Translations under genes and position numbers: made by a program
In this document: positions 2,791 through 17,564 of the stretch, piece by piece
Layout: every line of letters starts with the position of its first letter
Numbering within the stretch: position 1 is the stretch's first letter
Notes under the pieces: model-generated
Database searches by the model: none
Told to the model about the DNA's origin: nothing
The model's input: only the letters and a program-made list of their open reading frames with translations
IMG/VR virus record: IMGVR_UViG_646206259_000006
Strand: one strand, 5' to 3'
DNA length: 17,564 nucleotides
Origin: a virus
Lineage: Duplodnaviria > Heunggongvirae > Uroviricota > Caudoviricetes

Positions 2791-3854
2791 TACCCGTCCA
2801 GAAGAAGACATTTTCACTGGCTGGTATGTCGCCAAAATCCAGCAATATGACAGCAAAGTCAGACATTAATACAGCAGATACAAGCAAAGTTTATCATTTG
2901 CTGGTGGTAGGAGCGGATGCCTTAACTATGTCAGAAATTACGGTCGATGGTGTTAGCGTTGAGAAGGTCAGCGGCTATGCCAGAGAATTTCTGGTCGTAG
3001 ATGGCTTTCTCTGCTCGTGTAGTGACTCCACAAAAACCTTCGTCCACGCGCGTGACGTTAACGAAATGAGCGCGATGTACTGTGCTTCTGGTTCTTCCAA
3101 TAGTGAGTTTTCGGAGTCCATAAAAAAGAGCTTGCCGTTATGCGGCAACACGGTTTATGGTTATAAGGCACCTCATAAAACGGGTGCCGGGATTGGCGTC
3201 CTGAAAATTCTGAAGGCGACATATGACGCGCCGAGCGTCTTTTTTTATGTCGTAGGTCTGACTCACCCATTTTTTGGGCGTTGGTGTATAATCCAGCGCC
3301 TTTGTCAATCAATGGTGGCTCAGGCGGGGGCTTCTTCGGAAGCGCCGGTATCCTTCAGAGCCGGTTACGCCAACCCTGTCTGGGCTACCACCAGCGAAAT
3401 TGGCGTTTCCGGTGGTAGCGTAACCTGCTATCTGAAGGAGGCTGCCACATGCTGGCTACTACCCCTACCCAAAAAACGCAATTTATCTGGATTATCGCCG
3501 CAGTTCGCCGCGATTGCCCGACAATTACCGCCAAAATTCATCATATTGCTGCCGAGTCTGAACGCGATGCTCGCCGTTCTCTGGTGCGCGATCACATCTG
3601 CTTTTTTGCTGGTCGTATCCGCATGGAGGTGGCACATGATTAAAAACTACGATGTGCATATGGATCCCCTCGAACGCACAAGCCAGATCATCACACTGAC
3701 AGAAGTGATTAACGACATTCTGGTGAGCAACTCTCCCTCACGAGACGAAAGACTGAAGGCGTTACTCGCGATATTGGATCTCGCCGTTCGTGACGTTCAT
3801 TTCCTGCTGGAAGGTGGCGAAATGCCAGTAAAAACGGGGGCAACCAATGAATAA
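2787..3854 (+). CDS. Hypothetical protein (355 aa as an uninterrupted ORF); 3' third may be a separate small gene starting at ATG 3636
   Basis: ATGA start/stop overlap with the upstream gene and GGAGG RBS at 2775-2779. No in-frame stop until 3854. The stretch about 3240-3636 is W/C/L-rich like a non-coding frame. ATG 3636 has its own GGAGG RBS. Confidence 0.45.
3449..3643 (+). CDS. Alternative small ORF (64 aa) nested out of frame inside the 2787..3854 ORF
   Basis: Strong RBS GAAGGAGG (3434-3441) 7 nt before the ATG. Protein-like composition. Frame opens after a TAG at 3416-3418. Cannot be real together with an intact long ORF unless genes overlap extensively. Confidence 0.3.
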   Translation: MLATTPTQKTQFIWIIAAVRRDCPTITAKIHHIAAESERDARRSLVRDHICFFAGRIRMEVAHD

Positions 3855-5126: not shown

Positions 5127-7478
5127 ATGCGAAACATTGATCTTATCCGTCAGGTTATCAGTGCGTCTGAAAACAACTGGCCTCATGTGCTGGGCTGCCT
5201 GAACATAAATGTCCCTGACTCTCCGCGCCGTCATGCTCCCTGCCCTGCATGTGGGGGCAAAGACCGATTCCGGTTCGATGACAACGGGCGCGGTAGCTTC
5301 ATCTGTAATCAGTGCGGCGCTGGTGATGGGCTGGATTTAATTAAACGCGTAAATAACTGCGACACAACAGAGGCGGCGCTGCTTGCCGCTGATGTTCTGG
5401 GTATTGATTACCGGACAACGGAAACACCAGAAGCCACCAGCCAGAAACGGGAACAACTGGAAACCGAGCGCCAGCGACGCGAACAGGAGCGCCTGAAAAG
5501 GGCAGAGAAGGACGAACAACAAAGACGGGATACGTTTTCCCGTCAGTTTGATGACATGCGCAGAAAGGCTGTAAACGGCAAATCTGATTATCTGGTTGCG
5601 AAAGGGGTAGGTGATTTTACATTCCCTGTGTTGCCCGATGGATCTCTGTTGCTGGCGCTGGTGGATAAATCCGGCGCAGTTACAGCAGCACAGACTATTA
5701 CCTCACATGGTGAAAAAAGACTCCTGACAGGTTCAGCAAAGCGAGGGGCATATCACGCCATAAACGCACAGAAACGACCTCACAGCATCATAATTGCTGA
5801 GGGGGTGGCTACCGCCCTGTCGTGCCATTTAATTCGCCCTGACGCAATGACAGTGGCAGCAATCGACGCTGGCAACCTGTTGCCAGTAGCGGAAGTCATG
5901 CGCAGAACATATCCACAGGCACAAATCATCATTGCCGCAGATAACGATCACCAGCAAGGAAACTCCGAAAGTGGAGGGATCAACACGGGGAAAGATGCCG
6001 CAGAGAGGGCCGCTATTTCCGTAGCTGGCTGGGTGTCTCTGCCACCGACTGACTATAAAGCCGACTGGAACGACTATCACCAACAACACGGGCTGGCGGC
6101 AGCCACAGCAGCATTTAAAGATTCGATGTACCAGCCACGGGGGAAAGGGGCGCAGGTGAAAAATCACAAACAGTCAGTCGGGGCGCTGAATGAGATCAGT
6201 TCTGGCGAGGTGTTAAGCGATGATGAAATTGCTGTCCTCGAAGAAATCAACCGGACGTTTACGCATGTCACCATCGGCGGGAAACACAAGGTGGTGTCGC
6301 TAAAGCCTTCTCAAACCGGCGGTGTATCGCACGTTTTCGAGGATTTATCACAATTTCAGCATTATTTTCATCATAAACCGAGAGTCGCCAGAAAGCTGGC
6401 GGGATCGGCGTGGCTGTCATGGAGTGGGAAGAACTACAAGCCAGGAGGCGTAGGATTTTATCCAGTACCAGACAAATGCCCTGACGATGTTTTTAATCTG
6501 TATGAGGGGCTGGCACTGGAACCAATTGAAGGAGATTGCACGGTATACCTTAATCACCTGTTGCAGGTTGTCTGTGCCGGTAATGAAGAGGCATACCAAT
6601 ATCTTATCCAGTGGATGGCGCACATTATCCAAAAGCCTGATGAAAAACCGTCCGTGGCAATCGTGATGAAATCTGTCCCGGGCACAGGGAAAGGCACAAC
6701 GGTTAAACCGCTGCTGCAAATACTGGGGCAGTACGCCGCCCACATTAACGGGGCGGGACATATTTCAGGGCGCTTCAATTCAATACTTGCTAACAAGCTA
6801 CTGGTATTTGCTGACGAAGTGACGATCCACAAGCCGTCTGAAGCTGACAGACTTAAAGCGATTATTAGCGAACCGACGTTTAACCTTGAGCGCAAGGGAA
6901 TTGATGCTGAACCAATGCCGAATTTTGCCCGGTTGATATTTGCCAGTAACAGCACACAGGTATTACAGGCAGGGATAAGAGAGCGCCGCTATCTCGTGCT
7001 TGAGCCATCTCCTGAAAAAGCACAGAGCCGGGAGTATTTTGATCGGCTGTACAGTTGGCTTAATGATGGCGGTGCCGCAAAGTTGCTTTGGCATCTTAAA
7101 GGGGTGGATCTCTCAGGTTTTGACCCTCAACGAGCGCCACAGACCGATGCCTTACGTGAAGAAATCTTGCTGGGGCTGTCTGGCGTTGAATTGTTTCTTT
7201 ATGGCGAGCTAATCAATGAACCTCCGTTTAATGGCGAAGTCCGTTTGTTTGCAAAGGATATGGTTAGTCGGTTTGTAGCGTGGTCGCTTGAGCGTGGGGA
7301 AAAGCTTAAAGAACCAGCTGCCAGATCACTACTGGGTAAATCACTTGCACAAATGGGGCTGGTGAAGCATGGAAGACCAGACCGAGGGAATGGCGTGTTC
7401 TACGAACTACCAGAGGTCGGAGTTCTACAGGCTGCGTTTGCCCGTCTGATCGGTATGGGGGGTTATGATGTTTTTTAA
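5127..7478 (+). CDS. P4-alpha-like primase-helicase (783 aa)
   Basis: N-terminal CxxC…CxxC zinc-binding motif (CPACGG…CNQCGAG). TOPRIM-like segment (IIIAEGVATALS, IIIAADNDHQ). C-terminal P-loop (VPGTGKGT) and DExx-like box (LLVFADEV). Iteron cluster immediately downstream. Confidence 0.85.
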   Translation: MRNIDLIRQVISASENNWPHVLGCLNINVPDSPRRHAPCPACGGKDRFRFDDNGRGSFICNQCGAGDGLDLIKRVNNCDTTEAALLAADVLGIDYRTTETPEATSQKREQLETERQRREQERLKRAEKDEQQRRDTFSRQFDDMRRKAVNGKSDYLVAKGVGDFTFPVLPDGSLLLALVDKSGAVTAAQTITSHGEKRLLTGSAKRGAYHAINAQKRPHSIIIAEGVATALSCHLIRPDAMTVAAIDAGNLLPVAEVMRRTYPQAQIIIAADNDHQQGNSESGGINTGKDAAERAAISVAGWVSLPPTDYKADWNDYHQQHGLAAATAAFKDSMYQPRGKGAQVKNHKQSVGALNEISSGEVLSDDEIAVLEEINRTFTHVTIGGKHKVVSLKPSQTGGVSHVFEDLSQFQHYFHHKPRVARKLAGSAWLSWSGKNYKPGGVGFYPVPDKCPDDVFNLYEGLALEPIEGDCTVYLNHLLQVVCAGNEEAYQYLIQWMAHIIQKPDEKPSVAIVMKSVPGTGKGTTVKPLLQILGQYAAHINGAGHISGRFNSILANKLLVFADEVTIHKPSEADRLKAIISEPTFNLERKGIDAEPMPNFARLIFASNSTQVLQAGIRERRYLVLEPSPEKAQSREYFDRLYSWLNDGGAAKLLWHLKGVDLSGFDPQRAPQTDALREEILLGLSGVELFLYGELINEPPFNGEVRLFAKDMVSRFVAWSLERGEKLKEPAARSLLGKSLAQMGLVKHGRPDRGNGVFYELPEVGVLQAAFARLIGMGGYDVF

Positions 7479-7507
7479 TATAGTCTTTTTACAAGAAGAT
7501 CGTTTTT

Positions 7508-7611
7508 ACCTGTACCACCTATACCACTTTGCTAATTCAGCATTAAAAACAATGCGTTATAGTGGTACAGGTCAATATCTTACCTATACCAGACCTGTAC
7601 CACCTATACCA
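7508..7611. repeat. Iteron cluster 1 (putative origin): 19-bp direct repeat ACCTGTACCACCTATACCA at 7508-7526 and 7593-7611 with an inverted TGGTACAGGT copy between them
   Basis: Direct reading. Lies immediately 3' of the primase-helicase gene in an AT-rich context, the usual position of the ori in P4/PICI-type elements. Confidence 0.7.
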
Positions 7612-7654
7612 TTAACAAACGCATTTCTTCTGGCTGGCTGAGAGGGAACAACCA

Positions 7655-7885
7655 ATGATGAGCACACCATTTTACAAAGTGCGCCAGTTAGCTTCTTCCT
7701 CTGGCTGGCAGCTACGGTTTGAGGGGCGTTCAGACTGGCTACCCATTGCGGCATGGGCGAATGTTGAAATGTGTATTGACGGCGATACCGTTGAAATCAT
7801 TATTCCCTGCGTGGCAAGTCGGGACGGCTGTATAGAGCCAACAGATATGGCAGCAGAAATCAGAGAGGTAAAACATGAACAATAA
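7655..7885 (+). CDS. Hypothetical protein (76 aa)
   Basis: AGAGGGA RBS upstream of ATG. Stop overlaps the next start. Confidence 0.5.
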   Translation: MMSTPFYKVRQLASSSGWQLRFEGRSDWLPIAAWANVEMCIDGDTVEIIIPCVASRDGCIEPTDMAAEIREVKHEQ

Positions 7886-8612
7886 CTATTGCATACTGCA
7901 GGGAATGACCAGAACGGAGCGCGAAGAATTAAAAAGTTTCGCTACACAGTGCGGGAATGCTGGCGACATCCAAAGTCTGGAACGCACTTTAATTATGATT
8001 GCGCACTGGATGCGCCAGGGGCAAAGAGTTTCATTTACTGAATATGCCAGCCAGTGGACAGAGGCACAGCGCGAACGGAGCGACGGTAATCACTCAACAC
8101 CCGAAATGGCGAAGCAATGGCCTTTCAGTGGTAAACGCTGTATCAGTCCCGGTGGTTCAGATTATTACCCTGCTGGTGTGGGAGATGAGCCATGTTGTGA
8201 CGAGACTGAAATCCGCCACGCAGTGACAGTAATTACCGCTGAATACCCACAATTTAACCTTGACGGACTGGCGCTCCACAACCGGAATGCGGACTGGGAA
8301 AACCCGCTTGATAACCCGTCATTTATCGTATCGGCGAAAAGCTGCCTGAGATGGATCAGAGACAACGGGATGAGTAATGCCCAGATTGAGAGCTTCCCGC
8401 AGGATAACCCCACATCTGACACGTTGAAGCATGAAGTGGAGCGATATAACCAGATAAACCACCAGCACAGTGATCACCCGCACTATATCCCCAACGGAGC
8501 ATTTATTGCGGCGATGGTGGCAAGCGGCTACAAGGTTAAGCCAGCGGGAAGAATGAACGCATTTTTCAATATTTCAAAAAAGGGATTATGTGCTGCTATG
8601 GGTAAAAATTAA
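7875..8612 (+). CDS. Hypothetical protein (245 aa)
   Basis: GAGAGG RBS. ATG overlaps the upstream stop. No recognisable domain. Sits between the two iteron clusters. Confidence 0.55.
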   Translation: MNNNYCILQGMTRTEREELKSFATQCGNAGDIQSLERTLIMIAHWMRQGQRVSFTEYASQWTEAQRERSDGNHSTPEMAKQWPFSGKRCISPGGSDYYPAGVGDEPCCDETEIRHAVTVITAEYPQFNLDGLALHNRNADWENPLDNPSFIVSAKSCLRWIRDNGMSNAQIESFPQDNPTSDTLKHEVERYNQINHQHSDHPHYIPNGAFIAAMVASGYKVKPAGRMNAFFNISKKGLCAAMGKN

Positions 8613-8617
8613 ATAAA

Positions 8618-8721
8618 TGGTACAGGTCTGTACAGGTGGGGAGAGGTCATTTTTACCCACCTGTACCACCTGCAGGCCGCGCCACACAAGGGTTTGTGAC
8701 ATGGTGGTACAGGTGGTACAG
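8618..8721. repeat. Iteron cluster 2 (crr-like): at least four copies of the GGTACAGG/CCTGTACC core in both orientations
   Basis: Direct reading: TGGTACAGGT 8618-8627, CTGTACAGGTGG 8628-8639, CCACCTGTACCACC 8657-8670, GGTGGTACAGGTGGTACAG 8703-8721. Same core as cluster 1. Confidence 0.65.
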
Positions 8722-9085
8722 CAAAAACAGCGATTTTCTTTATAAGGTATGTTTTGCTCATCTGGCAGACGGAGGTATTCGCTGCGGTTTGGCACATAGC
8801 CCAGAACAGCAAAGAGTTTTACGAGACTTTTGTAAAATCCAGTGTACAAGGGCGTGACGTTTTTGAAGGTGAGCACTACGAAATTTTCGTAGTTCAAAAA
8901 ATAGCCTCTGAGATGTTGTTATGCCTGTTCAGCAAACCATCCGCATAGCTGATCGCGAATCAAATTACCAATGGAGCCAGAAGCAAGGGCAGAACTGGAA
9001 AGCGCCTGCCGTGAAGAGTAATGCGACTCCATAAATATAGTTTTTAGAGTCCATAAAAAAACTGTCAAAACCTGACATACAGAAC

Positions 9086-9216: not shown

Positions 9217-9389
9217 TGGCTATTTCAGTAAAGCCAGTATTGATAAGTGAGAAGCAAATGGAAGCGATAAAGAAAATTCAGGAGGAGCAGCGTAAAAAAT
9301 CAGAGGTAGGAGTTGCGCCAACGATCCACGAAATTGCTCGGGGATTAATGGATAAGGCGCTGGCTTACACTTTAACTGGACGTGGGTAA
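9217..9389 (+). CDS. Small hypothetical protein (57 aa), possibly ribbon-helix-helix-like DNA-binding
   Basis: AAGGGGGG RBS 5 nt upstream. Perfect -10 TATAAT at 9176-9181. The ORF-track call from 9087 is likely an over-extension. The RHH guess is from the beta-strand-then-helix pattern only. Confidence 0.45.
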
Positions 9390-9393
9390 ATTT

Positions 9394-10737
9394 ATGGCTA
9401 CGTGGCAACAGGGTATTAATTCTGGTGGTTTTCTGGCTGGCATCGGTGCGCAAAATGAGAATGCGCCAAAGGCAAGCGACATTAACGCAACGCTTGGTCT
9501 GATCCGCGAAAACAATGAACTGGCTCGCTCAGGTGCAAATAACGTTGCTCTGACAGGTCTTCGTGGTCTGGCTGGAGTTGCTGACATTTATAAGCAGCAG
9601 CAACAGCAGGAACGTAAAGCGGCATTCCAGAAAGGTTATGCAGATGCTTATGCGTCCGGTGACAGGGAGCAGATGCGTAATCTTATTACAGCATTCCCAG
9701 AAGAGTTTGAGGAAGTCCGTAAAGGGATGAGTTATGTCGATGATGCTCAAAGGGATGATTATGGCAATCTGGCGCTCAAAGCACAGGTAGCCTCATCGCT
9801 TGGTCAGGGCGCATTTGGCAGGTTCATGATGGATAATGAGCAGGAGATGCGTCGTTTAGGTATCCCTCCAGAAACTATTGCTGAAATGCAGGTTAATGAC
9901 CCGCAGGGCTTCCAGCATTTCGCAGGTAATCTGGCGCTGTTTTCTCTCGGTCATGAGAAGTATTTCGATATCAAAGATCAAATGGAAGGTCGTCGACTTG
10001 AGCAAGGGCGACTGGATGAAAGTATGCGTCAGGCTGACATGGAGAACGCGAGAGGATGGGCAAATATCCAGAACGCTCAACTAGACAGGGCTCAGCGAGC
10101 ACAAATTCACTCAGATGAGATGGGATTGAAGCTAATGGAGCTGGGGCAAAAAGGTAAGCCGTCAGCAGACTTAATTAAGGGATTAAATTCTGACATTACC
10201 AATTTTGGCAAAAATTATAACTCTGTCAGAGCGGCGGCAAACTCTCTGCAAGCCCTTAGCAAGGTAAATACTGGCGCTGCCCAACTTGGGATTATCTTCA
10301 ACTACATGAAATCTCTTGACCCGCAGTCAGTCGTTCGTGAAGGCGAACAGGTTCAGGTAATGCGGTCTGATGGCATATGGGGACAAATCAAAGGATACAT
10401 AGACCAGCTTAATGCTGGAAACGGCCTGTCGCAGGAGGCAAAGGATAACATTGTTAACGCCGCAAAAATCAACGCCAATGCTATGGGGCAGCAGTTTAAC
10501 CAGCAGGTTGACGAGTATCTCGATACATATGGAGAAACTATTCCTCAGGGGCTAAGAAAAAGCCTTGAAAGAAGGAAAGCGAAGCTATTTGACGATGTTT
10601 CCGGGCAGCCTACATCACAGGCTGGCACTGGACAGGCAAAAGCGGCAACCGGAGGAATATCAGAAGGCGCAACGGCAACCAACCCTAAAACTGGTCAGAA
10701 AATCATTTACAGGAACGGAAAATGGCAGCAAATGTAA
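9394..10737 (+). CDS. Hypothetical large protein (447 aa from ATG 9394; alternative GTG start 9382), Q/N/A-rich and predicted largely helical
   Basis: Long ORF with coding-like composition. No catalytic motif seen (no P-loop, HNH or PD-(D/E)xK). Low-complexity poly-Q stretch (QQQQQ). Flavour of phage internal/ejection or scaffold-type proteins; function unknown. Confidence 0.6.
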   Translation: MATWQQGINSGGFLAGIGAQNENAPKASDINATLGLIRENNELARSGANNVALTGLRGLAGVADIYKQQQQQERKAAFQKGYADAYASGDREQMRNLITAFPEEFEEVRKGMSYVDDAQRDDYGNLALKAQVASSLGQGAFGRFMMDNEQEMRRLGIPPETIAEMQVNDPQGFQHFAGNLALFSLGHEKYFDIKDQMEGRRLEQGRLDESMRQADMENARGWANIQNAQLDRAQRAQIHSDEMGLKLMELGQKGKPSADLIKGLNSDITNFGKNYNSVRAAANSLQALSKVNTGAAQLGIIFNYMKSLDPQSVVREGEQVQVMRSDGIWGQIKGYIDQLNAGNGLSQEAKDNIVNAAKINANAMGQQFNQQVDEYLDTYGETIPQGLRKSLERRKAKLFDDVSGQPTSQAGTGQAKAATGGISEGATATNPKTGQKIIYRNGKWQQM

Positions 10738-12839
10738 TCTTACCGGAAGGTTTTGTGCTCGATGAACAACCTGATAACTCACAGTTTCCTGATAGTTCAC
10801 AGCTTCCTGATGGTTTTGTGCTTGATGCCCAACCAGAACAGCAGCAATCACCTTTGGTTTCACCAGAGGAAAATTCCAGACAGGAAAATGTTGTTAATAA
10901 TGCTAACGGTTTCGACCGTTTTATGTATGGCGTTCTCAGTGGATTGATGGATGTTGGTAAAGGTGTTGGCCTGTTTCAGGATATGACACCAGAAGAGCAA
11001 GCCGCAATTCAGTCTCTACAGCAGAAGTTAGCGGCAAAACCATCAACCGCACAAGATGTTGGTGAGTTCGTTGGACAAGCAGCGCCATTTGTTAGTGGTG
11101 GTGGGATTATTTCTCAGGTTCCCAAAGGGGCGGCAAGACTGGCTGCCGCCGTAGGGCTTGGTGCTGGAGAAGGGGCTATTGTAGCCAATGGAACAAATAG
11201 CGATGTTGCTTCCGGCGCTGCTATTGGCGCTGTGGCTGGCCCTGTAGCCGAACTTGCTGGCCCTGCAATTAATAAAATAGCTGGGAAATTAACCAAGAAG
11301 AATGTTTCTTCGATTCCAGATATTGAGGGGATTACTCCTGCCGAAGAGAAAATTCGTAAGTTATCTGCACAAGGCAACCCAAATCTTGCCTCTTCGCTTG
11401 AAGGGCTAGATCTAAAACCTCAGAAAGAAATTGTTGAGGCTGCAAATAGGCTTCATGTTGATTCAGTTCTTCCTTCTCATTTATCAGGAAATGAGCAATA
11501 CCAAGCTGTAGAGCAAGCCCTAAAGTCACGGACAGGATCAGCGTTAAAAGCTCAAGAAGATAAAGCAATAAGCGAATTAGCCTCTAGTGCTGACAAGATA
11601 ATCGATGATGTTGCTGGTGCGCCAGATGCGTTAGCTATGAGCGAAAAATATATTTATCAGATAAATAGTAGAATGGAAGCACTAAAAAACCGTAGTGATC
11701 AGTTATATAAACGTGTTGATTCCGCTCTATCACCAAGAACAAAAGTCGAAGCAAATAACACAAGCACTATGCTGGAAAAAATCGCTGATGATTTAGGAGG
11801 GTGGGATAATCTTGACCCAATAGAAAAGCGAGTTTTTACAGCAATAAACCCCGGCCCAGATAGCATCCTAACGTATGCAAATTTAAACAGGCAAAGGCGT
11901 TTAGTTGGTGATGCCCTAAATAAAAAGCAGGGGCCATACAAAGATGCTGATAAAGAAGCGCTATCAAGACTATATGGAGCTTTAGCTGAAGACCAAAAAT
12001 CTGTCTTATCCAATACTGGATACTTGCGAGATTTCGAAGTCGCACAACGCCTTGTAGCTATGAGAAAAAACTTAGAAAGGCAAATGGTAAATCTTCGCGG
12101 GAAAACACTTAATGGGGATATAGCGTATAAAGTAACGAATTCTCTTCAATCTATGGCAAAAGGTGATGCGAGAGGGTTTCGTGAGATTATGCAAAATACT
12201 CCATCAAGAACATTGCGAAGGGAGCTAGTAGGAACAGCATTAAGAGATATGCTTTCCTCTGGGAAGCGTGGGGCCGACTTTAATCCATCTGGCTTTGCAG
12301 ATTGGTGGCAAAACTTGCAACACAGTGGACAGCTAAAGACTTTGGCTGAACATTTGCCAAAAGAAACAATGAGCGGACTATATGATGTATACAAAGTTGC
12401 CAGAGCAATAAAAAATGCTAAAGCGCATGAAATATCTACTGGTAAGCTGAATGAGTTTGTAAACAGATTTAATCGGGTAACAGCTCCATACGAACTAGCA
12501 GCAAAACACATTCAAAAAATAGGCACGATGGTAGGCGCTCATTTTGGATCGCTTGGAGCCATTGCTGGGGCTGATATTGGAGCAAGATTGGCGAGTAAAG
12601 CTCGATTAGCTGGTGGAGCAGGGGCGGCTGATGCTGCGGATAAATTAATTGCCTCGCCAGCCTTCCAGAGCGCAGTAAAAAATCTACACGGAAAAGCGCC
12701 TGGGCACATTGTTGATTCACGTATCAGGCGCTCCCCTCAATGGAAGAGTTTTTTTAACTCTCTTCCTGAACAGGAAAAACGGACCATCGCCAGACTGGGC
12801 ATCATTACTTGGCTATCTAATGATCCAGATAATGACTAG
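10722..12839 (+). CDS. Hypothetical large protein (705 aa) with N-terminal tandem peptide repeat, Gly/Ala-rich segments and a long helical middle
   Basis: Overlaps the upstream gene by 16 nt, so co-transcribed. N-terminal repeat PEGFVLDEQP / PDGFVLDAQP. GxxxG-rich segment (GLGAGEGAIVANG…AIGAVAGPVAELAGPA) and C-terminal Gly/Ala hydrophobic stretch (GAHFGSLGAIAGADIGARLA). No enzymatic motif recognised. Confidence 0.6.
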   Translation: MAANVILPEGFVLDEQPDNSQFPDSSQLPDGFVLDAQPEQQQSPLVSPEENSRQENVVNNANGFDRFMYGVLSGLMDVGKGVGLFQDMTPEEQAAIQSLQQKLAAKPSTAQDVGEFVGQAAPFVSGGGIISQVPKGAARLAAAVGLGAGEGAIVANGTNSDVASGAAIGAVAGPVAELAGPAINKIAGKLTKKNVSSIPDIEGITPAEEKIRKLSAQGNPNLASSLEGLDLKPQKEIVEAANRLHVDSVLPSHLSGNEQYQAVEQALKSRTGSALKAQEDKAISELASSADKIIDDVAGAPDALAMSEKYIYQINSRMEALKNRSDQLYKRVDSALSPRTKVEANNTSTMLEKIADDLGGWDNLDPIEKRVFTAINPGPDSILTYANLNRQRRLVGDALNKKQGPYKDADKEALSRLYGALAEDQKSVLSNTGYLRDFEVAQRLVAMRKNLERQMVNLRGKTLNGDIAYKVTNSLQSMAKGDARGFREIMQNTPSRTLRRELVGTALRDMLSSGKRGADFNPSGFADWWQNLQHSGQLKTLAEHLPKETMSGLYDVYKVARAIKNAKAHEISTGKLNEFVNRFNRVTAPYELAAKHIQKIGTMVGAHFGSLGAIAGADIGARLASKARLAGGAGAADAADKLIASPAFQSAVKNLHGKAPGHIVDSRIRRSPQWKSFFNSLPEQEKRTIARLGIITWLSNDPDND

Positions 12840-13375: not shown

Positions 13376-13476
13376 GATATCACTGCCACAGCAAAACACC
13401 AATTTCGTGACCAGTACGCGCGCGAGGGGTATCAGTTGCAAAAATTTTGCAACCACGTCCGACCAGTACGCACACG
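13376..13476. repeat. Non-coding repeat block: two copies of an alternating-CG motif (CCAGTACGCGCGCG / CCAGTACGCACACG) flanking the inverted repeat TTGCAAAA-A-TTTTGCAA (13436-13452)
   Basis: Direct reading. A related roughly 55-bp sequence recurs at 16285-16338 and a shorter copy at 13688-13711. Confidence 0.5.
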
Positions 13477-13687
13477 ATGGCGGGGGATACCATGAAACTG
13501 TTCTCTACACGAGACAGAGTGGTGGTGATGTGTTGATTATCGGCGTATATGCGCACAGGACGCGCTATGACGATGTTTTATGCGGGTACACCAATCACAT
13601 GTATCTGGTGTGATAAATCGCGTTACATGACCTCTCATGTTGTGCTGGTGGTTATCACGACTTTCTGAATCTGGCCTTTGCCTGATA

Positions 13688-13711
13688 TTTTGCGACAAGT
13701 ACGCGCGCGTA
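13688..13711. repeat. Third copy of the CG-alternating motif, containing the perfect palindrome TACGCGCGCGTA
   Basis: Direct reading: TTTGCGACAAGTACGCGCGCGTAGC. Confidence 0.45.
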
Positions 13712-14165
13712 GCATCGAAATTATCGGATGGCGTATGCTGCTGGCAATATGAAGACCGATAGTATTAACCGAAAAGCGAAAGAGCTTCTCGATAACGGCA
13801 AGATCGCGGCAAGGGTTGCTGAATTTGAACAGATGTAAGGAATGGAACCAGAGAGGCGCTGGCGGCGAAAAAACGCCACTACCAGCGGATAAATGTGCCA
13901 ATCTTTTAGTTGGAAAAACAGCATAGAAGGCTACCATGATATGTAAAGATTGCTCAAAAAGTTATTATCAACGTCTAATTTCATTAAAAATGCTCCTTAT
14001 TGCTGTTAAAAATCAAAGAAATCATTTAAAAACCGTTCAACACCCCCCATCTGTCTTCAAAAAGATTTGTGTTGGTTAGTGACTAGTTACCTTTTATATG
14101 TAAATATATCCACAAGGGAAGTGGTGAAAATTTCGACTATTTAACCATAATCAAAGGAGGTGAAC

Positions 14166-14648
14166 ATGTCGAATACATCTGCACATGCCCTCTTGAAAGA
14201 TATCTGGGGCGATAGGAAATTCCCGGTTGATCCAGTATGGATTGCCAATGAGTTAGGGTTGGATGTTGTTGAAACCACGCTTGATGATGATGTTTCAGGC
14301 GCATTGCTGAAAGAGCCAGAACAAGATCCAGTAATCATACTCAATCGTAATGATAGTAACGTGCGCAAACGATTTACGTGTGCGCATGAGTTAGGGCATT
14401 ACGTCAAACGAACTGAGAACGGTCAGCCACTTGAATATGAGTTTGTTGATTACCGCGGAAAACTGGCAAGCCAAGGTGTAGACAGCGAAGAAATATTCGC
14501 CAATAACTTTGCAGCATGTCTTCTCATGCCAGAAAAAGAGGTTCGACGCCTCAACAATGCAGGATATGCACCAGTAATGATGGCTTCCTATTTTGGTGTA
14601 TCCGATGATGCTATACGTTATCGCCTAAAGAATTTAGGGCTTCGATGA
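14166..14648 (+). CDS. ImmA/IrrE-family (DUF955-type) zinc metallopeptidase (160 aa)
   Basis: AGGAGG RBS (14155-14160). HEXXH zinc-binding motif (CAHELGHY) in the context typical of ImmA/IrrE peptidases. No HTH domain detected in the protein itself. Confidence 0.7.
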   Translation: MSNTSAHALLKDIWGDRKFPVDPVWIANELGLDVVETTLDDDVSGALLKEPEQDPVIILNRNDSNVRKRFTCAHELGHYVKRTENGQPLEYEFVDYRGKLASQGVDSEEIFANNFAACLLMPEKEVRRLNNAGYAPVMMASYFGVSDDAIRYRLKNLGLR

Positions 14649-14651
14649 GTA

Positions 14652-15029
14652 ATGACGTCTAGATCTTACGCTATATCTGAAAAACTAAAGCAAGCGGCAA
14701 GACAAGCCAGAGGTGAACCAGCCTCTGGCTCATCTCCATCAGCAAAAACCCTCACACATCTAAATGATAAGGATCCAGCCAAAGCCCATCAGCGTGCAAA
14801 AACAAAAGATTTAAAAACAGACACAAAACTGAAAAAAATGTTTGCTCGGTGGTTTATCGGCATTCTGATAGGCCAGCTATTAGTTATGAATGGGATTTTT
14901 GTCCTTATTGGAGCAAAACTGCTCCATTTTAGTGATTTCGTTATAAACCTATTTATGGGGGGAACCCTCGCTGAAGTCTTTGGCATTGTTTTAGTGATGG
15001 CACGCTACCTGTTCTCCAAGCACGTCTAA
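14652..15029 (+). CDS. Small membrane protein (125 aa): basic hydrophilic N-terminus plus two C-terminal TM helices; coupled to the peptidase gene
   Basis: ATG 3 nt after the peptidase stop. Hydrophobic stretches FIGILIGQLLVMNGIFVLIGAKLL and LFMGGTLAEVFGIVLVMARYLF. Confidence 0.5.
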   Translation: MTSRSYAISEKLKQAARQARGEPASGSSPSAKTLTHLNDKDPAKAHQRAKTKDLKTDTKLKKMFARWFIGILIGQLLVMNGIFVLIGAKLLHFSDFVINLFMGGTLAEVFGIVLVMARYLFSKHV

Positions 15030-15045
15030 AAATCAAAATATAGGG

Positions 15046-15489
15046 CTACATTCTTAGAGCCACTGATAACTTTTCAGCATTGCTTCCCTGACGCTTCCAC
15101 GCGCTGTAAATGTCTTTATCCCATGCTTTACCAGCTTTTGTTTGATAGCCTGCTTCATTGAGCCGTTCCGCTATCACACGCCCATTATCAAATCCCTGTT
15201 GGATGGTATCGGCAATGATCTTTATAACTGCCGTTTCGTTATATGGCTTTGGTGGGATGTTCGGCTTTCCGGCAATAAGCGACGCAGCGGCTTTTTCCAT
15301 GCGCTCCACCAGCCCAAGCATTCGTGAATCAATAGACTTTTCCGGCTGTCCCAGCTTCATGCGAATCGCATCAACAAGCCAGGAGGTTTTATCCCCTCCA
15401 GAAGCGAGAACAGACCGATTAAACTCATCCTGCAATTCAGATGGGATGCGGAACGCGATCAGATTAGATTTGCTCATTGCAAAGACCAT
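15046..15489 (-). CDS. Putative DNA-binding regulator (147 aa): ribbon-helix-helix-like N-terminus with a serine-recombinase 'Recombinase'-domain-like C-terminal segment
   Basis: N-terminus NLIAFRIPSELQDEF…SWLVDAIRMKL resembles the RHH fold (Arc/MetJ/CopG). C-terminus IAERLNEAGYQTKAGKAWDKDIYSAWKRQ resembles the LNxxGxxTxxGxxW motif of the recombinase DNA-binding domain. Start could be ATG 15489 or 15477; neither has a clear SD. Confidence 0.5.
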   Translation of the reverse strand: MVFAMSKSNLIAFRIPSELQDEFNRSVLASGGDKTSWLVDAIRMKLGQPEKSIDSRMLGLVERMEKAAASLIAGKPNIPPKPYNETAVIKIIADTIQQGFDNGRVIAERLNEAGYQTKAGKAWDKDIYSAWKRQGSNAEKLSVALRM

Positions 15490-15590
15490 ATCAGTGAGTA
15501 ATATCCATACAGTATACCACTGTATAACACTGTTATACGCTCAAATATCAGCCAGAAAATAACGGACCAATCACAAAGCTATCGCTGTGT

Positions 15591-15735
15591 TGTTGGTTCA
15601 GAGCTGGGCTGTGTTGGTTCAAAATGAGTTGATGTTGGTTCAACATTTCAGAAAAAACACAATAAAAACAACGATCTTTACAAATTAAACCAACTGAACC
15701 AACTGAACCAACACCTTTTTGCTTATCTATATAAT
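15591..15735. promoter_or_regulatory. Divergent promoter/operator region: three direct TGTTGGTTCA repeats at 21-bp phasing (15591, 15612, 15633), two tandem inverted copies TGAACCAAC (15695-15712), and a perfect -10 TATAAT (15730-15735) for the plus-strand gene
   Basis: Direct reading. The inverted copies sit where the -35 of the PerC-like gene promoter would be. A related half-site TGTTGGTTAG occurs near 14071-14080 upstream of the peptidase gene. Confidence 0.55.
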
Positions 15736-15748
15736 CTGAGAGGCAGAA

Positions 15749-16036
15749 ATGATAAGGGACAGGAAAGCTGAAGAGCTGGAGTCAAAAGGGCTATACCGGA
15801 GAGCTGCCGCACGATGGGCAGAAGTCATGATGCTGGCAGATGGCGATAAAGAACGTGAACATGCAGCAAACAGACGCTCTGAATGTATCCGTAAGGCGGC
15901 ACGCCCACCAGCAACTACAGACAGATTCGGAGATTTAAGACAGGCAGTTAAGCGGACTCATTCGGCTCTTGGTATGGATGAGGAAGCGAGAGGGTACTTC
16001 AGGCGTTATCGCGATAAAGATTGCCAGAGACAGTAA
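15749..16036 (+). CDS. PerC-family transcriptional regulator-like protein (95 aa)
   Basis: N-terminal AEELESKGLYRRAAARWAEVM matches the conserved PerC/Pch N-terminus as remembered. GAGAGG RBS. Confidence 0.55.
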   Translation: MIRDRKAEELESKGLYRRAAARWAEVMMLADGDKEREHAANRRSECIRKAARPPATTDRFGDLRQAVKRTHSALGMDEEARGYFRRYRDKDCQRQ

Positions 16037-16284
16037 TGCTCTCTCTCTGTTTTGGCAAATTCCCCCTCACTTTGAAGGGATCGGAGCTATAAAAATGGTG
16101 TTATCCGGCTTCCTGCATTGTAGGTTTTCGAAAAAATCAATGGGTTAGGTCATCGTGCAAATTTGCACTCTGCCAGCCAACGCAATTTCTCGTTGGCGAA
16201 AATATCAGGTATTTACTGAACGAACGGTCTACCAGTCTATTCAGTTACCAGTTGCACATGGCTGTTTCATGTGAGAACGGAGGT

Positions 16285-16338
16285 TTTTTCGGACATCACT
16301 ATTGGTTACAGCAATTTCACGAGCAATACGCGCGCGCA
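16285..16338. repeat. Fourth copy of the CG-alternating motif family (ATCACT…CAATTTCACGAGCAATACGCGCGCGCAGG), related to 13376-13428
   Basis: Alignment by eye: shared blocks ATCACT, ACAGCAA, CAATTTC and TACGCGCGCG in the same order. Confidence 0.45.
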
Positions 16339-16553
16339 GGACAACAAGCCTGAACATAGTTACACACCTCGATCGTGAGGGATGTAGACAATGGCTTCTG
16401 GCCAAAGCACCCGAAAAAAACCGTGTACATAAGGGTGTACATAATCAAAAACCGCATTAGAAATAAACCAGCTTCAATGCGGCATTGAAGCCAATACTCT
16501 ACAAACAGATCCAAATAACTCGTAACGCCAATTCTTCCTTTTCAGCCTTCACA

Positions 16554-16586
16554 AATGCCGCCCACTCAAACAGAGCGGCATTTTTC
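16554..16586 (+). terminator. Rho-independent terminator (8-bp stem AATGCCGC/GCGGCATT, 13-nt loop, T5 run)
   Basis: Direct reading of 16554-16586. Confidence 0.5.
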
Positions 16587-16675
16587 CTCCCCGCAACATT
16601 CAATTCTGTTTTGCGTGCCTGCTCCAGATTTTGCGATGTTTTTTTGCCCAGCGCAGTGAGAACGTGAGATACTCA

Positions 16676-16696
16676 CAACTGTATATAAACACAGTT
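16676..16696. promoter_or_regulatory. LexA (SOS) box-like palindrome AACTG-N11-CAGTT upstream of dinD
   Basis: AACTGGTATATAAACACAGTT read directly. Canonical LexA boxes are CTG-N10-CAG, and this site is one base longer between the CTG and CAG half-sites. Confidence 0.5.
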
Positions 16697-16739
16697 GTAA
16701 ACTTACTTTCCTTGCAATCGATATCATATGGAGTGGGCA

Positions 16740-17564
16740 ATGAACGAACATCATCAACCTTTTGAAGAAATACGGCATTATGGCACTGAAGGGCAAGAAT
16801 TTTGGTCAGCGAGAGAATTGGCACCGTTACTGGATTATCGGGACTGGCGCAATTTTCAAAAGGTACTGGCCCGCGCGACTCAAGCGTGCGAAGCCAGCAA
16901 TCAAGCTGCATCTGACCATTTCGTTGAAACCACCAAAATGGTTGTATTAGGTTCAGGGGCTCAACGAGAACTTGAAGATGTTCATCTCTCCCGCTATGCC
17001 TGTTACCTGGTAGTACAAAACGGCGACCCTGCGAAACCGGTTATTGCGGCAGGGCAAACTTATTTTGCTATCCAGACCCGACGGCAGGAGCTGGCTGACG
17101 ATGAAGCTTTCAGGCAACTTCGTGAAGACGAAAAGCGTCTTTTTCTGAGAAATGAGTTGAAAGAACATAACAAACAATTAGTTGAGGCAGCGCAGCAAGC
17201 TGGGGTAGCGACAGCTATCGATTTCGCCATATTTCAGAATCATGGTTACCGGGGACTGTATGGTGGATTAGATCAGAAAGCCATCCATCAGCGGAAGGGG
17301 CTGAAAAAGAGTCAGAAGATCCTGGATCATATGGGTTCAACAGAACTGGCGGCTAATCTCTTTCGAGCTACCCAAACAGAAGAAAAACTCAAGCGGGATG
17401 GCGTGAATTCAAAACAGCAAGCTAATACCACACACTTTGACGTGGGTCGCAAGGTGAGGCAAACCATTCAGGAACTTGGCGGAACCATGCCTGAGGAGTT
17501 GCCGACCCCGCAGGTCAGCATCAAGCAGTTGGAAAACAGTGTAAAAATTACAGAGAAGAAATAG
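16740..17564 (+). CDS. dinD: DNA-damage-inducible protein D (274 aa); alternative upstream ATG at 16728
   Basis: Protein beginning MNEHHQPFEEIRHYGTEGQEFWSARELAPLLDYRDW matches the E. coli DinD sequence as remembered. SOS-box-like palindrome about 45 bp upstream. Stop codon is the last triplet of the window. Confidence 0.75.
   Translation: MNEHHQPFEEIRHYGTEGQEFWSARELAPLLDYRDWRNFQKVLARATQACEASNQAASDHFVETTKMVVLGSGAQRELEDVHLSRYACYLVVQNGDPAKPVIAAGQTYFAIQTRRQELADDEAFRQLREDEKRLFLRNELKEHNKQLVEAAQQAGVATAIDFAIFQNHGYRGLYGGLDQKAIHQRKGLKKSQKILDHMGSTELAANLFRATQTEEKLKRDGVNSKQQANTTHFDVGRKVRQTIQELGGTMPEELPTPQVSIKQLENSVKITEKK

Follow-up and report, generated by a model that had tools for sequence, protein, structure and literature searches.

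A candidate orphan origin cassette upstream of perC in an EcCIMP1-like phage-inducible chromosomal island

What purpose is served by a symmetric array of short, phased repeats that lies several kilobases from the nearest replication gene? The array in question occupies positions 15591-15713 of IMG/VR record IMGVR_UViG_646206259_000006, a 17,564-nucleotide stretch of DNA that was analyzed at its full length and is here called the window. An island with 100% identity to the window lies between yicC and dinD in Escherichia coli PA45B and other strains, and its gene content is that of an EcCIMP1-like phage-inducible chromosomal island (PICI). On one side of the array is a minus-strand gene for a 143- or 147-residue protein, and on the other a plus-strand gene of the PerC family. 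An original prediction, made from the nucleotide sequence, took the repeats for a cooperative operator serving these two flanking regulators. The comparisons described below point elsewhere: judging from sequence and from analogy with known satellites, the array probably is an origin cassette of the type used by PICIs and Staphylococcus aureus pathogenicity islands (SaPIs). It would have the specificity of a DUF927-type replication protein (Rep), and would have been orphaned in this element by the exchange of a Rep-ori module.

Anatomy of the array and its usual partner

The left arm of the array comprises three direct copies of TGTTGGTTCA on the plus strand (15591-15600, 15612-15621, and 15633-15642), with start-to-start distances of 21 and 21 bp on which direct reading and a repeat finder agree. 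Next comes a 43-nt spacer (15643-15685), a putative melting region, whose A+T content is 77% versus 54% across the whole window; its center, TTTACAAAT/AAAAACAA, is kept in alignments across loci. The right arm (15686-15713, minus strand) consists of three tandem 9-bp units: TAAACCAAC, TGAACCAAC, and TGAACCAAC, followed by a single A. The last two of these units, at 15695-15703 and 15704-15712(13), are the reverse complement of TGTTGGTTCA. The first (15686-15694) is degenerate and had gone uncounted; relatives have a perfect TGAACCAAC in its place and carry two to four perfect tandem inverted units overall, and the G-to-A change is specific to the lineage of the window.

These are genuine protein-recognition repeats. 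Allowing at most one mismatch, the 10-mer has 8 matches in the window versus 1.52 +/- 1.19 expected, and none of 200 shuffles reached 8. All exact copies of the 9-mer fall within the array. Alignment shows no change in the iterons but divergence in the spacers that separate them (L003/L005). Thus the original prediction described the locus accurately in several respects: the direct repeats phased at 21 bp and the inverted tandem copies are far above chance, the array does sit between the minus-strand 143/147-aa gene and the PerC-family gene, and its motif is distinct from that of the iterons beside the window's own primase (TGTTGGTTCA versus CCTGTACCAC). Compared with Rfam over its full length, the window gave two RNA families only, both at 3168-3395 and none at the array, and a literature search for the motif strings returned unrelated primer matches only.

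The anatomy is that of a satellite origin, in which at least two iterons stand on each side of an AT-rich center in opposite polarity; here there are 3 + 3 copies of GTTGGTTCA. The likely partner emerges from related elements. In the circular sibling L006 (NZ_CP148430.1, 12,152 bp), which is deposited as a non-mobilisable 'plasmid', one such cassette (A) starts 25 bp past the stop codon of a TOPRIM-DUF927 gene. It contains three tandem copies of GTTGGTTCA, a 43-nt spacer of 79% AT, and three copies of TGAACCAAC. Relative to the window array it is inverted, and the two, which are paralogues, share 78.5% identity over 121 nt. The same element also has an intact counterpart of the window array (cassette B) before perC. 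Two full-length E. coli elements, L133 and L134, have the injectosome genes and the cargo block enclosed between cassettes A and B, at a separation of 6-7.4 kb; over the DUF927 siblings L006, L133, L134, and L106 the distance is 1.8-8.4 kb. In L007, a Klebsiella capsid-forming PICI (cfPICI), both cassettes are contiguous directly after rep and are followed by an unrelated 111-aa gene.

The part of the protein common to array-bearing rep loci is the DUF927 domain together with the C-terminal region; WP_075362680.1 is an example of such a Rep. Over their shared DUF927 part, the Rep proteins of L006 and L007 are 71% identical; their N termini differ, as do the downstream genes. This part is homologous to a chain of structure 8tch named 'Pathogenicity island protein' (E=7e-12), which we take to be a staphylococcal island replication helicase. 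A weaker match (E=0.004) is to 5dgk, deposited as 'Active helicase' and presumably the SCCmec helicase Cch.

The association holds in an unbiased scan of IMG/VR with the 18-mer TGAACCAACTGAACCAAC, which returned 138 clusters on 120 contigs. In 69 clusters, oriented like cassette A, the distance past a DUF927 stop codon is 25-110 bp; 21 others, oriented like cassette B, are 194-337 bp past one, and 7 lie just upstream of perC. The other 41 comprise 36 unrelated coding repeats and 5 true arrays, located at contig ends or in contexts resembling that of L005. About 90 of the roughly 102 real arrays are therefore found no more than 340 bp downstream of a DUF927 gene. The position expected of an origin, immediately 3' of rep, is occupied by cassette A in L006, L133, L134, L007, and the 69 IMG/VR contigs. 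Moreover, each of the three Rep alleles checked has its own 3' iterons: CTGTCTACC for EcCICFT073, CCTGTACCAC for the DUF5906 type, and GTTGGTTCA for the DUF927 type. By this association, and by analogy, the window array would belong to the specificity group of the DUF927-family Rep, and in anatomy it appears to be a complete origin cassette.

Exchange of the replication module

The window itself has a different Rep. Its primase-helicase gene (5127-7478, plus strand; product WP_001332287.1) encodes an N-terminal Zn-ribbon and Toprim as in the siblings, joined to a C-terminal half of the DUF5906 type, not DUF927; a tblastn search of the window found no encoded DUF927 protein. Residues 1-345 of this primase, which span the Zn-ribbon and Toprim, are 85% identical to those of the L006 primase, and no similarity is seen thereafter. 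By blastn, window 6149-8812 (plus strand) replaces L006 4765-6696, the segment with the DUF927 half and cassette A, and the flanks are 94-99.9% identical. The incoming segment, a swapped replication-specificity module, comprises the DUF5906 C-terminal half, two small genes, and both CCTGTACCAC clusters. The first cluster (7505-7611) starts 27 bp past the rep stop and has the features of an origin, with ACCTGTACCACC and inverted copies around an AT-rich center. The second (8618-8716), the distal partner within the DUF5906 module, lies 1.1 kb from the first.

The two small genes, of 76 and 245 aa, are located between these clusters. In its layout the pair of clusters resembles the bipartite ori/crr of phage P4 (crr, cis replication region), and it travels with the DUF5906 half as one module.

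The array at 15591-15713, 8.1 kb downstream of the primase stop (7478), is therefore not where an origin is expected: the canonical position immediately 3' of rep is held in the window by its own CCTGTACCAC iterons. Nor does the element encode a Rep of matching specificity, its own being of the DUF5906 type. The idea that the array is the window element's own origin was rejected on these grounds, namely the different iterons at the canonical site of the primase and the unrelated C-terminal halves of the Rep proteins. The PA45B genome contains this single array only. Cassette B lies outside the swapped segment, and therefore would have been left without its cognate protein.

The distribution of the two modules is informative. 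In a small sample, the single-array genomes L131 and L132 carry DUF5906 and the two-array genomes L133 and L134 carry TOPRIM-DUF927. The DUF5906 module is rare and nearly clonal (about 130 E. coli genomes, 123 of them at >=99% identity), whereas the DUF927 module is diverse and present in 368 E. coli genomes, a contrast that fits a recent swap. Cassette B has perfect 3+3 iterons in three of three DUF927 examples, and one lesion in each DUF5906 example: TAAACCAAC in the window, loss of one tandem unit in L131, and TGTTAGTTCA in L132 and L002.

These observations suggest the following model. In the DUF927 siblings, Rep would bind the GTTGGTTCA iterons on both arms, probably via its C-terminal part, and would then melt the AT-rich center and load itself. 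Cassette A would be the copy directly after the rep stop. Its inverted paralogue B, contiguous with A in the Klebsiella cfPICIs, is found 2-8 kb away in E. coli EcCIMP1-like PICIs, before perC or near the att (attachment site) end, where it may serve either as another origin or, like crr in P4, as a partner of the first. In an ancestor of the window element, recombination would have exchanged the Rep C-terminal half and cassette A for the DUF5906 module with its own CCTGTACCAC iterons. Cassette B would have been left behind, with no window-encoded protein expected to recognize it. Here the relic is most likely silent as an origin, and would have persisted for two reasons: the swap is recent, and the relic contains the perC 5' region.

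Operator, promoter, or orphan origin

The operator proposed originally would be bound by the 147-aa protein, with its ribbon-helix-helix (RHH) and recombinase-type helix-turn-helix (HTH) character, or by PerC, and would control the divergent promoters as well as the peptidase gene via a half-site. The location is suggestive: the array stands between both genes, the -35 position for TATAAT 15730-15735 falls within its last copies, and the 147-aa gene neighbors the array in the window, L006, L131, L133, and L134. RHH repressors such as omega of pSM19035 bind arrays of short repeats, both direct and inverted. The 147-aa gene (15046-15477/89, minus strand; product WP_024186145.1) has an RHH-like N terminus by eye, and the matches of its C terminus to recombinase-type HTH domains are weak and below Pfam thresholds. 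Nevertheless, gene and array come apart. The array occurs without this gene in E. coli L002-L004 and L132, in L005, in the Klebsiella cfPICI L007 and L007-like cfPICI contigs of up to 14 kb, and in about 90 IMG/VR contigs. By a sensitive search, 563 of 5,426 complete E. coli genomes contain the array region. In many of these, homology begins exactly at iteron 1 or 2 (15591/15612) and continues into perC, with a different gene upstream, which places the 147-aa gene on the variable-cargo side. Conversely, homologues of the 147-aa protein (67-75% identity; L016, L039, L053, and L086) have no upstream TGTTGGTTCA array and keep a box of their own, ATACAGTATACCACTGTATAACACTGTTATAC. In the window this box was located by the repeat finder at 15507-15538 and includes the perfect palindrome GTATAACA-C-TGTTATAC at 15522-15538. 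Because homologues without the array keep it, the box is assigned to the 147-aa gene, and is likely its operator/promoter region, possibly autoregulatory. PerC is no better as a constant companion: perC homologues lack the array in EcCICFT073, L106, and L091, and the array lacks perC in L005, in L007, and at the distal position in L106.

The supposed small regulon fares similarly. In the whole window, exact 9-mers are confined to the array; the half-site upstream of the peptidase gene, TGTTGGTTAG at 14070-14079, is without the conserved CA, and the 7-mer core GTTGGTT has 3 copies outside the array, where a random 7-mer would be expected about 2.1 times with both strands counted, which is chance level. 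(A recombination scar at the cargo junction was considered for the 14070 half-site and discarded, as the junctions are at 13719/13900 and 15066/15611.) A cooperative operator for the two flanking regulators is thus highly improbable. The accompanying claim of two independent DNA-recognition systems in the element survives insofar as the motifs are distinct; the protein for the array motif is the part that fails, with no DUF927 product encoded.

A second possibility, unlikely on the present evidence, is that the cassette, however it arose, now serves mainly to control the perC promoter. A conserved factor bound to the tandem iterons would stand in for the missing -35 region or occlude it, and so tie perC expression to the induction or replication of the satellite. 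Rep is the candidate in the DUF927 elements; a host or helper protein is the alternative. The accessory perC gene (15749-16036, plus strand; Pfam PerC PF06069, E=2.6e-33) is located downstream of cassette B, from which it is separated by a T-rich stretch (15714-15748, plus strand) with the perfect TATAAT, 16 bp past the last iteron, and a GAGAGG Shine-Dalgarno sequence at 15738-15743. This stretch is possibly a weak or factor-dependent promoter abutting the iterons. A 17-bp spacer from TATAAT puts the -35 hexamer, ACCAAC (15707-15712), within the last iteron, so that the overlap noted originally is real. As a promoter the site is poor: ACCAAC matches the consensus at 1 of 6 positions, and a strict promoter/terminator scan of 13900-16800 called nothing in the intergenic region 15478-15748. 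Moreover, a transcript starting about 7 nt past this -10 would begin inside GAGAGG and would lack the Shine-Dalgarno sequence. Conservation speaks for some role. In E. coli perC-linked arrays the distance of TATAAT from the array is fixed and the stretch 15714-15748 is invariant, even where PerC is only 54% identical; the iteron block through the first 84 nt of perC is 96% conserved where the remaining PerC shows that same 54%. Klebsiella too has a TATA-rich segment after the tandem iterons, and iteron-type Rep proteins (P1, pSC101, and R6K) commonly repress promoters that overlap their sites. Against this, neither TATAAT nor perC follows the array in L005 or the distal array of L106, and the presumed binder is absent from the window. 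As for the product, the PerC-like protein of EcCIMP1 represses LEE1 (PMC11773190).

The orphan cassette might instead be kept for use in trans, by replication from, or titration of, the Rep of a co-resident or incoming DUF927 satellite, which would amount to satellite-on-satellite hitchhiking or incompatibility. Its retention in DUF5906 elements at two integration sites would agree with such a use. DUF927 satellites are about three times commoner in E. coli, and genomes can hold several arrays, in up to six places. Extra iteron clusters are copy-control and incompatibility determinants in plasmids. Retention for use in trans is nonetheless decidedly unlikely: the source genome has one array only and thus no partner, each DUF5906 example has a lesion in the cassette, and the near clonality of the module means that too little time for decay explains the retention. 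It is similarly doubtful that cassette B is, rather than a relic, a maintained trans site, for co-replication of this satellite by the Rep of a DUF927 satellite or for titration or handcuffing of a competitor's Rep. Equally doubtful, in more general terms, is a split origin in EcCIMP1-like PICIs, in which the paired inverted cassettes on either side of the ejection-protein and cargo block would selectively amplify it.

Least probable is a packaging (pac/TerS-binding) site or a set of integrase/excisionase arm-type sites. Satellites must have helper-compatible packaging signals, and that of EcCIMP1 is unknown (PMC11773190); the L005 array lies 380 bp upstream of an integrase gene. However, no helper-type phage with the array was found among 50,697 phage-collection records, which disposed of packaging-site mimicry. 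The single match in that collection, 'Klebsiella phage P12620-1', aligns in this region like the cfPICI L007, and the array is common to cfPICIs with their own terminase and HNH genes and to EcCIMP1-like elements that need a P22-like helper. Arm-type sites were ruled out by the right-hand att crossover, which comparison of the window with L006 places at about 16509-16512, some 800 bp from the array and too far away. Most arrays, in any case, directly follow rep.

In the orphan-origin reading, the repeat anatomy, the link to DUF927 genes, the exchange of modules, and the separability from perC and the 147-aa gene are observed, whereas binding by Rep, firing as an origin, and silence in this element are predicted. 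Probable as it is, the reading has points against it. Position, co-segregation, and analogy are the grounds for pairing Rep with the iterons. Cassette B persists, its iterons mostly intact, in DUF5906 elements both at yicC-dinD and at a different integration site, in the yagU/pao region, and so could have a function independent of the DUF927 Rep. E. coli copies show no variation in the stretch that begins with the last iteron, takes in TATAAT, and ends 84 nt into perC, and a promoter or regulatory role may coexist with an origin role. Finally, the lesions hint at relaxed constraint on orphan cassettes, but three examples per Rep type are too few.

The island and its closest known relatives

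The element that carries the array is organized as follows: integrase, AlpA-type HTH protein, AntA/AntB antirepressor, Ash-family protein, 783-aa primase-helicase, P22-type injectosome proteins, cargo, and PerC-family protein. RefSeq annotation of the identical locus, Pfam matches, and comparison with L132 agree on an EcCIMP1-like PICI gene set with one transcription direction and a specific att site. EcCIMP1 is an experimentally verified E. coli PICI mobilized by the P22-like phage Kapi1 (PMC11773190), and it shares with the window the integrase, AlpA, AntA/B antirepressor, Ash, primase, DUF2824/DNA-transfer proteins, and a PerC-like gene. The chromosomal context of L132, with yagU and an adjacent MarR-Vat island, is that described for EcCIMP1 (PMC11773190). 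The window element differs from EcCIMP1 in its location at yicC-dinD, its PerC allele, and its cargo. Origins and iterons are not mentioned in the EcCIMP1 paper (PMC11773190).

Several other features of the island and its kin deserve note. The P22-type injectosome/ejection proteins are encoded at 9382-12839 (8373-12905 in L132), with a Pfam Inj_translocase match (E=2.5e-73), a 705-aa partner, and DUF2824 in siblings. A satellite with ejection proteins and without capsid or terminase genes fits the P22-like helper reported for EcCIMP1. The cargo block (ImmA/IrrE peptidase, 125-aa gene, and 143/147-aa gene) occupies a variable hotspot at 13719-15611, between the injectosome genes and cassette B, with breakpoints exactly at iteron 1 or 2; siblings have an Abi-family protein or other unknown genes there. 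The best PADLOC match of the peptidase is capP (E=5e-25), and PADLOC gave no match for the 125-aa or the 147-aa protein. Between a membrane-protein gene and the cargo block, at 13409-13713, a G+C-rich 20-nt repeat, GACCAGTACGCGCGCGAGGG, occurs three times. Inside the 'Ash family' open reading frame, downstream of the AntA/AntB gene, Rfam identifies isrK (3168-3245, 67.8 bits) and C4 antisense RNA (3308-3395, 79.9 bits); by sequence, 3168-3395 is an antisense control module in a PICI resembling immI of P1/P7.

Some database entries also merit comment. Two entries filed as small non-mobilisable 'plasmids' are satellites in circular form: L006 is an EcCIMP1-like PICI, and L007 (NZ_CP069874.1, 15,995 bp) is a Klebsiella cfPICI. 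The 106-kb 'Klebsiella phage P12620-1' has at its end a DUF927-sized gene, the array, and cfPICI-like gene spacing, which may represent a co-assembled satellite. In L005 (4001-4129) and L106 (12857-12977), cassette B without perC or TATAAT follows an 89-aa open reading frame; E. coli L002-L004 retain the 3' part of this frame in conserved, though frameshifted, form. The L005 copy lies 380 bp before the integrase gene, which encodes 533 aa, and in both elements the cassette may stand at the edge of a satellite that adjoins another island.

For satellite biology, the analysis would assign GTTGGTTCA to a DUF927 Rep allele that is widespread in PICIs and cfPICIs of E. coli and Klebsiella, and CCTGTACCAC to the DUF5906 allele. 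It shows the half of Rep that sets specificity moving together with the origin-type iterons beside it, as one module, and a second, inverted cassette of this type in EcCIMP1-like islands, far from rep, that a swap can leave orphaned. Such assignments could be of use in annotating satellite origins and in designing conditional PICI replicons, and they bear on the compatibility of co-resident satellites. The EcCICFT073 primase and origin have already been used as a conditional replicon (bioRxiv 10.1101/2022.09.30.509847). This is not a new kind of system: origin iterons of PICIs and SaPIs, a distal cluster (P4 crr), and Rep-ori swapping (PMC8263062) are known already. What appears to be undescribed, at least in the EcCIMP1 paper, is the assignment of GTTGGTTCA to DUF927, the inverted A/B pair that brackets cargo, and the orphaned cassette.

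The nearest comparison is with the PICI/SaPI origin. Gram-negative PICIs have two iteron sets that flank an AT-rich region 3' of pri-rep, E. coli PICIs have four Pri-Rep alleles, and EcCICFT073's pri-rep-ori stretch replicates autonomously (Fillol-Salom et al. 2018, PMC6092414). In SaPIs, Rep is a self-loading MCM-like helicase with a C-terminal winged helix that recognizes iterons; SaPI and PICI origins have 6-12 of these immediately downstream of rep, with an AT-rich center and at least two per side in opposite directions (PMC9371898). The cassette is similar in having short, allele-specific iterons in two sets of opposite polarity around an AT-rich center, and in the siblings an identical cassette lies 25-110 bp past the stop of an MCM-like self-loading helicase gene. 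The window copy differs in lying 8 kb from rep, before perC, in an element whose rep is of the other specificity type, and in iterons of 9-10 bp versus the 5-6 bp described for SaPIs; its origin role is a prediction from sequence. The binding of Rep to iterons 3' of pri-rep in such origins was reportedly described by Ubeda et al. in 2007.

Phage P4 adds to its ori a distal cis replication region, crr, with iterons for the same alpha protein; crr, which is needed in cis, is made up of a pair of direct 120-bp repeats. (The P4 ori and crr are mentioned in PMC6092414.) The DUF927 siblings likewise have, several kilobases from the origin beside rep, another iteron cluster with that origin's specificity; of the two cassettes the window has only B, and the window's DUF5906 module also has two clusters, 1.1 kb apart. 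Unlike crr, the distal cluster of the siblings is a full inverted copy of the origin cassette, and in the window its Rep is missing.

RHH repressors provide a more distant parallel, in the repeat-array operators of omega of pSM19035 and of CopG. The likeness is in the short direct and inverted repeats in a promoter region by an RHH-like gene; the difference is that comparison with relatives separates this array from the RHH-like gene, and that the gene keeps a conserved palindrome of its own.

Finally, the PLE satellites of Vibrio undergo modular swapping of RepA_N and ori, in which otherwise similar satellites trade a Rep specificity domain and the matching origin as a single module (PMC8263062), much as the window and L006 differ by one Rep-ori segment. 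No leftover origin of the old specificity is described for them (PMC8263062), whereas in the window a cassette outside the swapped segment has survived, apparently as an orphan.

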